From a virus (taxonomy: Duplodnaviria > Heunggongvirae > Uroviricota > Caudoviricetes), in the IMG/VR virus record IMGVR_UViG_2744054628_000007: 4,879 nucleotides of DNA; one strand, given 5' to 3'. The notes under the pieces were generated by a model. It did no database searches. It had not been told where the DNA came from and saw only the letters and a list, made by a program, of their open reading frames with translations. Position 1 is the stretch's first letter. Every line of letters starts with the position of its first letter. Shown in pieces: positions 1,917 to 4,879 of this stretch. The translations under genes were made by a program, and so were the position numbers.

Positions 1917-2708
1917 ATGAGCGAGAAATTAAAGATAGTCTATCGCCCATTACAAGAATTGTCACCGTATGCGCACAACGCCAGGACGCACAGTACTGAG
2001 CAGGTGGCACAACTGGTAGAAAGTATTAAGCAATTCGGCTGGACTAATCCGGTGCTGATTGACGAAAAGGGCGAAATTATTGCGGGTCACGGTCGTGTTA
2101 TGGCGGCTGAAATGCTCAAAATGGATTCTGTTCCGGTCATTGTTCTGTCTGGCCTGACGGATGAGCAGAAAAAGGCGTACCGCCTGGCAGATAATCGCCT
2201 GCCGATGAATGCTGGCTGGGATGAAGATCTGTTGCGGATGGAGCTGTCGGACCTAATCAATGCTGATTTTGATGTCTCCCTGACAGGCTTCATCCCGACA
2301 GAAATTGATGAACTGTTGACGGATGTTTTGCCCGGTACAGGAAATGAGGAGGAGCCGTATACGACGAAAATTGATACGCCTGTTTATGAGCCGTCGGGCG
2401 GTAAACCGGATATCAGTGAACTGTACGACGATACGAAAACTCAGGAGCTGATCAGCCGGATACGTTCGGCGTCCCTTGAGCCTGATATTGAGAAATTCCT
2501 CCTGTGTGCGGCAGAACGTCACACGGTGTTTAATTTCAGCAGAATTGCGGACTATTACGCTCACGCCCCCTCTGAAATTCAGTGTTTTTTCGAGGAGTCG
2601 GCGCTGGTGATCATTGATTATCAGCAGGCTATTGAAAATGGATTTGTCCGGATGACGCAGCGCATGGTGGAGATCATGCATGGTGGTGAGGAGGAGGAAT
2701 ATGCGTGA
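1917..2708 (+). CDS. ynaK: ParB/Srx N-terminal-domain protein (ParB-like nuclease/NTPase fold) with an uncharacterised C-terminal domain; apparently the full-length form of the Rac ynaK locus
   Basis: The 263-aa ORF has a ParB-N pattern across its N-terminal ~135 aa: LSPYAHNARTH, SIKQFGWTNPVLID, IIAGHGRVMAAEML, RLADNR, W, and TGFIPTEIDELL. The gene symbol is assigned by synteny only (directly downstream of trkG, as in K-12 Rac, where I recall ynaK being much shorter). Residues ~135-263 carry no motif I recognise and end in an acidic tail, GGEEEEYA. Confidence 0.8.
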   Translation: MSEKLKIVYRPLQELSPYAHNARTHSTEQVAQLVESIKQFGWTNPVLIDEKGEIIAGHGRVMAAEMLKMDSVPVIVLSGLTDEQKKAYRLADNRLPMNAGWDEDLLRMELSDLINADFDVSLTGFIPTEIDELLTDVLPGTGNEEEPYTTKIDTPVYEPSGGKPDISELYDDTKTQELISRIRSASLEPDIEKFLLCAAERHTVFNFSRIADYYAHAPSEIQCFFEESALVIIDYQQAIENGFVRMTQRMVEIMHGGEEEEYA

Positions 2709-3633
2709 TGATTTTTGCGCCTTTATTCTGACTCACGGGCGACCGGACAAAGTTCTGACTTACCGGACGTTGCGTCGTGCTGGCTATACCGGGAAAATTT
2801 TTATCGTTGTTGATGATGAAGATAAGACACGGCATCAGTACATGGCTGAATTTGGTGAACAGGTGCTGGTGTTTTCCAAAGCCGATATCGCCAGTCGTTT
2901 TGACGAAGCCGATAATTTCTGTGACCGCCGCTCAATTTTTTACGCCCGTAATGCCTGTTTCGACCTGGCAAAACTGGTCGGGTGTAAATACTTCATTCAG
3001 CTCGATGATGATTATCACGAGTTCCAGTTTCGGGTGGATCGCAACTATGACCAGGCCTATTTTCCGATAAGGAAACTGGATGCGATCCTTTCTGAAATGC
3101 TGGCGTACTACGAATCAATACCTGCTCTTTCCATCGCTATGTCGCAGGGCGGGGATTTTCTTGGTGACAATGGCGGCCATGCTTCGTGGGTGAAACGCAA
3201 GGCAATGAACAGCTTTATCTGTTCGGTTGATCGACCGTTCTCATTCATGGGGCGCATTAACGAGGATGTGAATACGTACACGAATCTCGGTCGCTGTGGT
3301 GAATTGTTTATGACGATCGGTGCTGTCCAGTTAGGGCAGAAACAGACGCAGAAAAACAGCGGCGGAATGACCGAGCTGTATCTGGATTCCGGAACCTACG
3401 TTAAAAGTTTTTACTCCGTCATGTATGCGCCGTCGTGCGTAAAAATCTCACTGATGGGTGCCAGCCATAAACGCATTCACCATCAGGTCACCTGGAACAA
3501 CGCTGCAGTAAAAATCCTTCACGAAAAATACAGGAAGAAGACACCCTGCATATCAATGGGGGTGACAAATGATTCCGTATTCGAAAGTCGAGTCTCTGGC
3601 AGCGTGCCGGATGACTGCACAACAAATCGCTGA
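2701..3633 (+). CDS. Uncharacterised soluble protein with GT-A-like (DxD) nucleotide-sugar transferase signatures; putative glycosyltransferase
   Basis: The 310-aa product from ATG 2701 is preferred over ATG 2680 because GAGGAGGAGG at 2688-2697 is a strong SD. The start overlaps the upstream stop by 8 nt (ATGCGTGA). Motifs: CAFILTHGRPD (res 6-16), KIFIVVDDED (res 32-41), FIQLDDDY (res 98-105, nt 3004-3012 = DDD) and INEDVN (res 186-191). No long hydrophobic segment is present. By position it corresponds to the K-12 Rac ydaY pseudogene locus (from memory). The fold assignment is inferred from motif pattern and spacing, not from a search. Confidence 0.6.
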   Translation: MRDDFCAFILTHGRPDKVLTYRTLRRAGYTGKIFIVVDDEDKTRHQYMAEFGEQVLVFSKADIASRFDEADNFCDRRSIFYARNACFDLAKLVGCKYFIQLDDDYHEFQFRVDRNYDQAYFPIRKLDAILSEMLAYYESIPALSIAMSQGGDFLGDNGGHASWVKRKAMNSFICSVDRPFSFMGRINEDVNTYTNLGRCGELFMTIGAVQLGQKQTQKNSGGMTELYLDSGTYVKSFYSVMYAPSCVKISLMGASHKRIHHQVTWNNAAVKILHEKYRKKTPCISMGVTNDSVFESRVSGSVPDDCTTNR

Positions 3634-3820
3634 CGTTCTGGATGTTGATCTGAACCGACTGAAAGAAAATCGGGAAGCAATGACAGATTTTTATGCGGCC
3701 ATCCGTAAGGGCAGAGCGAAAGGTGAAGCCGAGTTACGAGCGGCATTGTTTAAGCTTGCCAGAAAAGGGGATGCCTTTGCTCTGCGCGAACTACTCAGGG
3801 TGGATAAAAATCAGGACTAA
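3569..3820 (+). CDS. Small helix-turn-helix protein, terminase small-subunit-like / packaging-associated DNA-binding protein
   Basis: The 83-aa ORF has GGGGGTGA (3558-3565) ahead of ATG 3569. The pattern ESLAACRMTAQQIADVLDV…FYAAIRKGRAKGEAELRAALFKLARKGDAFALRELL resembles the HTH plus helical repeat seen in small phage terminase-associated proteins. It ends 3 nt before the terminase ORF. An alternative start is ATG 3611. Confidence 0.6.
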   Translation: MIPYSKVESLAACRMTAQQIADVLDVDLNRLKENREAMTDFYAAIRKGRAKGEAELRAALFKLARKGDAFALRELLRVDKNQD

Positions 3821-3823
3821 CTG

Positions 3824-4810
3824 ATGAGCAGACCGGACTGGGGGGCGTTGCAGCAGGAGTATATTGCTGAATACACCCGCTCCGGTATATCTCCGGTGGC
3901 ATGGTGTGAAGCAAGGGGACTGAATTACGCAACAGCCCGTCGTTACATCAAAAAAACTCCGAAAAATGCGCAGACAGAAATGTGCAAAACTGCGCAAAAA
4001 AGTGCGCAGAAAAAATCTGCGCAGACTGCACAAAAGCGGAACGAAAAATCTCAGGAAAAAAAGCCAGTATTCGATGCGGGCCTGAATGAGGGCGACGCGG
4101 AGGAATTTTCGTTCTGTCCCGATGAATTCGGCATTTCTGACCAGCAGGCTAAGTTTGCGATGCTTGTTGCTCAGGGTAAAAAGCCGACATGCAAGGGGAT
4201 TTGGGAGCATCCAGGTATAAATCAGGGATATTTTGCGCCAACGTATCCCCAAATTCGCGATATTTTTTACCCTACAGTGGAAGAAGTTGCTGCTGACTGG
4301 GGATTGAACGTAAAAATTAATGAGGGAAATAAAGAGGTTCACTTTTATTACGGACGCCAGTATCGGGGAACCACTATCTGCAGATCGATGGAGAAGCCAC
4401 AAACGATCGTCGGTTTCAAAATTGGTAATGCGTTGGTGGATGAACTGGACATTTTGCCGAAGGAAAAAGCCAGAACGGCGTGGCGCAAGATAATTGCACG
4501 TATGCGTTATAAGATTGATGGACTTCGCAACGGTATTGACGTTACAACCACGCCGGAAGGATTCAAATTTGTCTACGAGCAGTTTGTTAAAGCCGTGCGT
4601 GAAAAAACAGAGCTGGCCTCACTGTATGGTCTGGTGCAGGCATCTACTTTCGATAATGAAAAGAACCTGCCAGCAGATTACATTCCTTCGCTTCTTGAAT
4701 CATACCCTCCAGAGCTGATTAAAGCCTATCTTCGAGGACAGTTTACTAACCTGACAAGTGGTACTGTTTACCTGATCTTACCCAGCAATAGTGGACACGC
4801 GGCTAAGTGA
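3824..4810 (+). pseudogene. Phage terminase gene remnant: TerS-like HTH N-terminus joined to a TerL ATPase core, truncated by IS3 (the last 38 nt of the ORF are IS3 sequence)
   Basis: The N-terminus (MSRPDWGALQQEYIAEYTRSGISPVAWCEARGLNYATARRYIKK, plus ISDQQAKFAMLVAQGK) resembles a terminase small subunit. From about residue 135 the sequence shows TerL ATPase features: YFAPTYPQIRDIF, Walker B ALVDELD (nt 4430-4450) and TTTPEG (nt 4544-4561). No GxxxxGK[ST] Walker A is present anywhere. The phage-derived reading frame ends at nt 4772 (…TSGTVY) and continues into the IS3 inverted repeat (LILPSNSGHAAK, stop at 4808-4810). No nuclease domain lies within the window. Confidence 0.75.
3950..4063. repeat. 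Phased array of palindromic TGCGCA hexamers interleaved with A-tracts, inside the terminase ORF
   Basis: Perfect TGCGCA hexamers start at 3967, 3991, 4003 and 4018. One-mismatch copies are TGTGCA at 3981 and TGCACA at 4027. Successive spacings are 14, 10, 12, 15 and 9 nt. A-runs of 4-7 nt lie between them and flank the array, for example at 3950-3956, 3962-3966, 3996-4001, 4010-4015 and 4055-4062. The region encodes the peptide repeat NAQTE/TAQKS/AQKKS/AQTAQK. Confidence 0.7.
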
Positions 4811-4879
4811 GTAAACTCTCAGTCAGAGGTGACTCACATGACAAAAACAGTATCAACCAGTAAAAAACCCCGTAAACAG
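4773..4879 (+). mobile_element. IS3 left end (IRL plus the start of orfA), continuing beyond the window
   Basis: From memory, the sequence from 4773 (TGATCTTACCCAGCAATAGTGGACACGCGGCTAAGTGAGTAAACTCTCAGTCAGAGGTGACTCACATGACAAAAACAG…) is the left terminus of E. coli IS3, starting with the TGATC terminal inverted repeat. Confidence 0.92.
4838..4879 (+). CDS. insE: IS3 transposase OrfA (InsE), first 14 codons only
   Basis: ATG at 4838 is preceded by GAGGTGA (4826-4832). The translation MTKTVSTSKKPRKQ matches the N-terminus of IS3 InsE as I remember it. Confidence 0.9.
   Translation, partial: MTKTVSTSKKPRKQ

Follow-up and report, generated by a model that had tools for sequence, protein, structure and literature searches.

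The packaging (pac) site of phage P22 is a single asymmetric site of ~22 bp, that of SPP1 consists of non-hexamer boxes with bent DNA and, to our knowledge, few phages have a pac site that was established by experiment. In phage P1, pac is a 161-bp segment of pacA with seven TGATCA/G repeats, which include Dam sites; synonymous recoding of these hexamers cut the phage titre ~9-fold, so that they are functionally required (PMC10028697). A pac site inside the small-terminase gene (terS) is the norm for headful phages (PMC11260489). Here, we describe a window of 4879 nucleotides (nt), the whole stretch of DNA that was analysed, from a virus of the Caudoviricetes (IMG/VR record IMGVR_UViG_2744054628_000007), in which the 5′ part of a terS remnant contains an array of the palindromic hexamer TGCGCA. 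From the sequence and the parallel with P1, we infer that this array is the pac site of a Rac-like headful phage, built on the P1 plan with another word, and we give this reading a probability of roughly 0.72. A P1-type hexamer pac is already known; what is new here is a different, Dam-independent word on a module that is common to several small-terminase (TerS) families.

The array contains four perfect copies of TGCGCA (3967–3972, 3991–3996, 4003–4008 and 4018–4023) and two hexamers with one mismatch (TGTGCA at 3981–3986 and TGCACA at 4027–4032), with start-to-start distances of 14, 10, 12, 15 and 9 nt, in agreement with a first-pass annotation of the window, which had counted four perfect and two degenerate copies every 9–15 nt. 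It occupies nt 144–209 of terS. A fifth TGCGCA is found as an isolated copy at position 1970; the five copies compare with an expectation of 1.55 ± 1.16 for the whole window from dinucleotide-preserving shuffles. The four perfect copies within 57 nt, a stretch for which a Poisson estimate predicts ~0.02, form a real cluster far beyond chance. Close relatives have an intact TGCGCA at each of the two degenerate positions, with MRK replacing MCK at 3981.

The terS loci sampled comprised 42 from a set with one genome per species, 80 from viral contigs and further ones from annotated phages; 80 distinct N-terminal segments were compared and 75 distinct R-type sequences were used for frame and spacing counts. 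Nearly all of the 80 segments have 4–7 copies of TGCGCA at terS nt 137–205; the main cluster holds 4–6 copies per sequence, and the copy number varies overall between 3 and 7. The array is kept in homologues of only 33–55% protein identity from Klebsiella, Citrobacter, Enterobacter, Raoultella, Leclercia, Yokenella, Kluyvera and Pantoea. The hexamers fall in all three reading frames: 297 are read as xxT-GCG-CAx (X-Ala-Gln), 61 as xTG-CGC-Axx (Leu/Met/Val-Arg-Thr/Asn/Ser/Lys) and 17 as TGC-GCA (Cys-Ala), and the flanking amino acids vary only so as to preserve the six bases. X-Ala-Gln is coded with xxT-GCG in 286 of the 317 cases in the array (90%), compared with 15 of 468 (3%) in the other open reading frames (ORFs) of the same loci; X can be T, S, N, P, A, I, F or G, and its third base remains T. 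TGCGCA reaches a density of 43 per kb inside the array, compared with 0.52 per kb outside. At the two synonymous sites of the hexamers in 27 divergent sequences, the third base of X is T in 103/109 cases and that of Ala is G in 98/109, and the fourfold sites of the adjoining conserved codons 1–44 have a mean pairwise identity of 0.60, with many columns at 0.3–0.46. These patterns indicate that the hexamers are constrained at the DNA level. A single hexanucleotide in multiple copies, as in a P1-type pac, is recovered here both in copy number and in the synonymous and cross-frame conservation. The comparison of synonymous with nonsynonymous change, which had been set beforehand as the test of a DNA-level function, thus came out in its favour, with the hexamers kept while the peptide varies.

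The arrangement of the repeats is considerably looser than the repeats themselves. Spacing in the 75 homologues ranges from 7 to 16 nt, with 9, 12 or 14 nt the commonest values and without a mode at 10–11 nt, so that the description of the array as phased has to be given up. The first-pass annotation had also noted that A-runs alternate with the hexamers and would favour bending; runs of 3–7 A are indeed present between and beside the hexamers of the window, but the proposed role in bending is not supported. The A fraction of the spacers is 0.59 overall, the spacers being A-rich because of lysine codons, and an Aeromonas array is almost devoid of A-runs. A-tracts are not a conserved feature of the array, and helically phased A-tracts of the SPP1 kind, kept among relatives, were not found. 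The copy number differs by whole repeat units in some relatives (L089–L091, L103 and L313), and several assemblies have frameshifts inside the A-runs beside the hexamers, which look like hot spots for insertion and deletion.

The array always starts a few codons after a conserved 45-residue N-terminal domain (N-domain; MxxPDWGxLQ...WCEAxGLNYxTARRYIKK), which is its conserved partner. An AlphaFold2 (AF2) model of the N-domain from a 40-sequence alignment has a predicted local distance difference test score (pLDDT) of ~90 for residues 11–40 and contains helices at 6–20, 24–31 and 35–41, the third of which carries YATARRY; the domain is therefore predicted to be a three-helix helix-turn-helix (HTH). 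When full-length TerS was modelled on its sequence alone, the AF2 prediction was unusable (pLDDT of 46), and a Pfam search with the N-domain alone gave only sub-threshold matches to HTH_23, HTH_28, HTH_29 and HTH_Tnp_1. The TerS proteins of Stx phages, of one Yersinia phage and of one Aeromonas phage also contain the N-domain, and a weak match to it is present in the PacA of the P1-like phage D6. The PacA family profile phrog_1711 (E value of 4e-202 for P1 PacA) matches the TerS N-terminus of the window type (3.8e-5), the Klebsiella type (3.9e-6) and the Aeromonas type (1e-6). In the reciprocal direction, P1 PacA matches phrog_370 (1.9e-4) and D6 PacA matches phrog_370 (3.9e-8) and phrog_51 (8.3e-5). 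A BLASTP comparison of the N-termini of P1 PacA and of the window TerS (E value of 0.001) aligns NLNPNTARRYL with GLNYATARRYI. The likeness to PacA is confined to the N-terminal 45–100 residues, the remainder of intact TerS being the Terminase_2 core, and suggests that the TerS N-terminal domain is distantly homologous to the N-terminus of P1 PacA. Six proteins (P0141, P0185, P0225, P0241, P0260 and P0265) contain 4–7 tandem copies of an N-domain-like HTH (WCxxxxIxxxT/S...), which suggests that the N-domain is related to transposase-type HTH modules.

The repeated word co-varies with the type of HTH. In a related group of TerS proteins, the N-domain is the same except that AKRYIK(I/V) replaces ARRYIKK, and the corresponding genes carry, at the same position, TGCGAA(T) repeats and a 12-bp palindrome, TGCGAATTCGCA, coding for A-N-S-Q-K. 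These sister arrays share the position right after the N-domain and the multi-copy layout, whereas their word differs by one base from TGCGCA. All distinct AKRYIK sequences from viral contigs (71/71) carry TGCGAA/TGCGAATTCGCA and none is dominated by TGCGCA, X-Ala-Asn is coded as xxT-GCG-AAT in 194 of 220 cases and every ARRYIK-type domain goes with TGCGCA. Members of the AKRYIK group (L037, L039, L040, L130 and L253–L332) have the array at terS nt 125–260, and a few of them (L276, L281, L298 and L317) contain hybrid TGCGAATGCGCA units. A search with the N-domain only returned 191 representatives of 50%-identity clusters at E ≤ 1e-3. Two or more 'AQ' in the following 45 residues were present in 79/97 of the Arg-type and 0/19 of the Lys-type representatives, and two or more 'AN' in 0/97 and 9/19, respectively. 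The variable Arg/Lys residue falls in the predicted recognition helix.

Exchanges of the TerS core provide better evidence for the linkage between word and N-domain than the Arg/Lys association itself. An ARRY N-domain is joined to the phrog_51/Terminase_2 core in the Rac-type and Klebsiella-type proteins and to a phrog_370 core in Aeromonas phage phiARM81mr, and the word is TGCGCA in both combinations (seven copies in phiARM81mr). An AKRY N-domain is joined to a phrog_51 core in Yersinia phage vB_YenM_21.09 and to a phrog_370 core in Trabulsiella, Kluyvera and Serratia prophages, and the word is TGCGAA in both. The word thus tracks the N-domain and not the TerS core. A third variant is found in Stx phages, the records of which recurrently match the N-domain: their TerS (ARTRIKM) is encoded with four copies of (C/T)GATCAT(G/A)A at a 12-nt period after the same N-domain, a word that, unlike TGCGCA, contains a Dam site and resembles TGATCA of P1. 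The Stx-phage array is therefore a candidate Dam-sensitive pac. In the terS of phage VT2-Sakai (L129, 1501–1700), the copies code for IDHEIDHKTDHEIDHD, each with its Dam site.

Clusters of TGCGCA were also sought in viral contigs (three copies spaced 3–10 nt apart), with at least 120 loci found. Among the 120 matches listed, 77 arrays lie immediately downstream of the N-domain, two more belong to the same terS gene cut by the edge of the locus and five belong to other TerS families, in which a different N-terminal HTH is followed by a TGCGCA cluster; in at least 84 of these 120 matches, the cluster is thus located in terS just after an N-terminal HTH. The other TerS families (L135, 2090–2178; L205, L222, L250 and L251) have an HTH of the form DWxxIExDYxAGxxSxRxIA... 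followed by 3–6 copies of TGCGCA, and their hosts include both high-GC and low-GC organisms. Dense arrays of 5–7 copies, at least partly noncoding, were also seen in L245 (9745–9801), L232 (1492–1597), L217 (1891–1946) and L159 (10433–10517), none after a recognized TerS N-domain; that of L245 is flanked by lysis genes and another late gene. No inference on packaging starts was drawn from contig ends close to the array, as repeats and prophage-boundary calls would confound it.

The closest counterpart of the array is the pac site of P1. In the annotated P1 record (pacA start at L132, 4530), TGATCA/G occurs at pacA nt 194, 201, 213 and 228 and in a second group at nt 324, 336, 347 and 375; the two groups span nt 194–233 and 324–380 around the annotated pac cleavage at nt 276–285, with an IHF site at nt 256–268. 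As in the TGCGCA loci, clusters of a palindromic hexamer are located in the 5′ part of a small-terminase-like gene, right after the part that codes for the homologous HTH, and the hexamers occur in more than one frame (two in P1) and impose a repetitive peptide. The first-pass proposal of a pac or terminase-recognition element of the P1 hexamer kind is thus supported by the reading frames, the synonymous sites and the PacA-like N-domain. A second conserved cluster, which gives a two-cluster layout like that of P1, is present in Klebsiella-type relatives, where gtTGCGCAggNatTGCGCA...TGCGCAc at terS nt 347–402 provides three hexamers ~150 bp downstream; these hexamers are fixed, although the Ala codon between them varies at its third base. 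In terS of the Klebsiella/Citrobacter/Raoultella type, this cluster (L002, 3369–3425, and equivalents) lies within the Terminase_2-coding part and codes for the peptide VAQAIAQQQKASxxRT. The word itself differs from that of P1: there is no GATC anywhere in 3950–4063, so the Dam-methylation control of P1 cannot apply. The proteins differ beyond the N-domain as well, with a Terminase_2/phrog_51 core in TerS rather than the PacA body and a large terminase (TerL) with Terminase_6N/6C, neither of which is matched by PacB. Beside the array, no good WATCAANNNNTTR match to an IHF site was seen by eye, with no formal IHF scan run. The first 420 nt of the pacA of D6 (L128, 1501–1920), a phage with a homologous PacA N-terminus, showed no obvious repeated hexamer. 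P22, SPP1 and related headful phages share with these loci a recognition site within the small-terminase gene, an oligomeric TerS and an N-terminal HTH (PMC11260489), but differ in that a multi-copy 6-bp palindrome with loose spacing and without conserved A-tracts is found here.

If the array is pac, the N-terminal HTH of TerS would be held on a long flexible K/Q/A-rich tether that is encoded by the array itself, the DNA of the tether-coding part supplying the 4–7 copies of the palindromic hexamer. Several HTH domains of an oligomeric TerS would bind several hexamers at once, and the complex of TerS with the array would recruit TerL, which would cut nearby and start headful packaging. As binding by an oligomeric TerS would be multivalent, exact spacing would not be needed, which accounts for a loose copy number and spacing together with a strict word.

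Three other explanations for the repeats were weighed. The first-pass annotation had itself raised the alternative that the array only reflects an (S/T)AQK linker, which can be extended to a by-product of linker sequence with codon bias or slippage duplication and no DNA function. The region does code for a K/Q/A-rich linker, and the whole-unit changes of copy number in L089–L091 indicate that slippage does happen. This alternative is nevertheless rejected because the hexamers persist in three frames (A-Q, L/M/V-R-x and C-A) and at synonymous positions even where the peptide changes, with xxT-GCG used in 90% of cases in the array and 3% elsewhere. Moreover, the length and sequence of the spacers are lineage-specific, so recent duplication fails to explain the identity of the hexamers, and the same peptide repeat with scrambled codons was not seen in relatives. 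Two independent assemblies (L004 and L005) encode an intact 365-residue TerS that is frameshifted across the array, giving the linker KCAERNAQNCAKKCAKKKLRRLRK with five hexamers retained; since the shift looks recent, it indicates only that the linker peptide is replaceable. Overall, we give the linker explanation hardly any credence. We regard as similarly far-fetched the selection of the repeats as mRNA hairpins that control the translation or stability of terS–terL. The predicted RNA fold of 3950–4063 is strong (−29.8 kcal/mol, compared with −16.5 ± 2.7 for shuffled sequences; z = −5), but any GC-rich palindrome array folds in this way, and ~140 of the 258 TGCGAA half-sites in the sister family stand alone in direct orientation and are unable to pair. 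Neither spacing nor pairing partners are conserved, the word co-varies with a protein helix and the equivalent repeats of P1 act as DNA. A restriction or methylation target (TGCGCA is the FspI/MstI site) was dropped from consideration, as such a word would be expected to be avoided and not to form a conserved cluster, and nothing ties this reading to the co-variation with the HTH.

Binding of the TerS HTH to the array could also serve autoregulation, repressing or timing terS/terL at the level of the gene or the mRNA, with the true pac elsewhere. The site lies inside the gene of its proposed binder, Rac-type phages have a single cluster, unlike P1, and both the co-variation and the synonymous constraint would fit any HTH–DNA interaction equally well. 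On the other hand, the homologous hexamers at the same position in P1 are pac, headful phages normally carry pac in terS (PMC11260489) and a mid-operon position is not one at which promoter function is needed. We consider autoregulation to be improbable, and the pac reading to be preferred. Besides the strong RNA fold, several further observations weigh against pac. The literature searched reports neither a mapped packaging terminus nor a binding or genetic assay for any TGCGCA-type phage. The window and its Rac-type lineage have one cluster of six hexamers, lacking the second cluster, compared with the 4 + 3 hexamers around the cut in P1. The similarity to PacA is weak (pairwise E value of 0.001; profile E values of 1e-4 to 1e-8), and a Foldseek search of the PDB with the N-domain model gave nothing significant (best E value of 0.9, the top matches being generic HTHs). 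The Arg-type and Lys-type sequences may each form one clade, in which case their perfect association with the word may rest on few independent changes. Finally, the remaining matches among those listed in the viral-contig scan are unrelated, being collagen-like GAQ repeats, tandem repeats of AAHDAART and, in a few cases, intergenic arrays. The open-access literature searched contains only P1 background and no description of TGCGCA, TGCGAATTCGCA or Stx-phage arrays as pac, an absence that is not proof.

The features of the packaging region are summarized in Table 1. The first-pass annotation had placed the array in the TerS-like N-terminal part of a terminase gene. The placement stands, whereas the gene is a terS'-'terL deletion fusion that is cut by IS3. 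In the ORF (3824–4810), the match to Pfam Terminase_6N starts only at residue 132 and covers residues 132–316 of the fused protein. In intact relatives, two genes take its place and encode a 364-residue TerS and a 433-residue TerL; Pfam Terminase_2 (PF03592/phrog_51) matches the intact TerS at residues 122–321 (E value of 2.4e-8) and is not present in the terS of the window, having been lost from codon 123 onward. By descent, the latter is a Terminase_2 family member that is truncated to a pseudogene. The deletion junction was found in one of 5426 complete E. coli genomes (NZ_OZ547155.1), compared with 751 complete E. coli genomes, together with several induced phages such as vB_EcoS-666R9, that have an intact terS–terL. 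At the 3′ end, thousands of E. coli matches annotated as IS3 family transposase cover query positions ~1273–1380 (window 4772–4879). With only 122 codons of terS left and terL cut on either side, the packaging module of the window is dead. The array is therefore a relic that could act only in trans, for a related phage, and is a predicted fossil pac in a defective Rac-like prophage.

Table 1. Packaging-region features of the 4879-nt window (L001 is the record of an intact phage).
Feature	Position	Strand	Basis
83-residue ORF upstream of terS	3569–3820	+	phrog_309, E value of 8e-23
terS remnant, codons 1–122 of a 364-residue small terminase, Terminase_2 core deleted	3824–4189	+	base-for-base identity with L001 6325–6690
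terS codons 1–44, predicted three-helix N-terminal HTH (PacA-N-like), proposed hexamer reader; recognition helix YATARRY at residues 35–41	3824–3955	+	AF2, phrog_1711, BLASTP
TGCGCA array of six hexamers, candidate pac recognition cluster; also codes for the K/Q/A-rich TerS linker	3967–4032	.	motif positions, conservation
Junction of 825-bp deletion (L001 6691–7515), joining terS codon 122 in frame to about codon 39 of terL	4189/4190	.	base comparison
terL fragment, part of the Terminase_6N ATPase domain, 3′ side cut	4190–4772	+	Pfam; identity with L001 stops at 4772
IS3 left end, interrupting terL	4773–4879	+	E. coli IS3 family transposase matches

Other genes upstream of terS were considered as readers of the array. 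The 83-residue ORF, the product of which the first-pass annotation had suggested for binding assays, was found in only 7/49 array-bearing loci and is lineage-specific, the array itself being nearly universal; a ParB_N protein and a TAGT glycosyltransferase likewise occur with the array in only 6–7 of the 49 loci. All three were rejected as conserved readers, as the array occurs without them outside the Rac lineage. The 83-residue ORF matches internal positions 145–218 of the 319 of phrog_309, another small-terminase family, and looks like a stand-alone TerS fragment gene. At 1917–3633, just upstream of the packaging genes and in the Rac-type lineage only, the gene for the ParB_N-domain protein overlaps that for the TET-associated glycosyltransferase (Pfam TAGT, E value of 3e-35; phrog_842, 'beta-glucosyl-HMC-alpha-glucosyltransferase'). 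The ParB_N protein also resembles the N-terminal part of phrog_498, a family of phage DNA methyltransferases, and the ORFs scanned contained neither a TET nor a methylase domain. The two genes may represent a DNA-hypermodification module, either minimal or a remnant. Between the lysis and packaging genes of the prophage (304–1779) lies a trkG-like potassium-uptake gene, annotated as TrkG in L001, which is cargo of Rac-type prophages.

A broader and more tentative proposal, which we regard as possible but somewhat doubtful, is that the HTH together with the hexamer array in its own linker DNA constitutes a portable pac cassette with a legible word, which would have been combined in evolution with various TerS cores and TerL types. 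One Arg/Lys change in the recognition helix would retarget such a cassette by one base, and relics that persist in dead prophages, such as this one, would be usable in trans by related phages, launching headful packaging of the adjacent chromosome. The word code could then read ARRY with TGCGCA, AKRY with TGCGAA, the Stx type with GATCAT and P1 with TGATCA.

For the window itself, the practical meaning is modest. If the pac reading is true, pac and its specificity class would be predictable from sequence for many temperate phages of Escherichia, Klebsiella, Salmonella, Citrobacter, Enterobacter, Yersinia and Aeromonas; the same would probably apply to Stx phages. Chromosomal regions that are moved by lateral or generalized transduction would then become predictable, and cross-packaging among satellites or phages would find an explanation. 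The arrays would also be of use in the design of phagemids or transducing particles, as is already the case with P1 pac, and the natural pairs of Arg versus Lys and C versus A would provide a test system for the reading of DNA by a ring of HTH domains.

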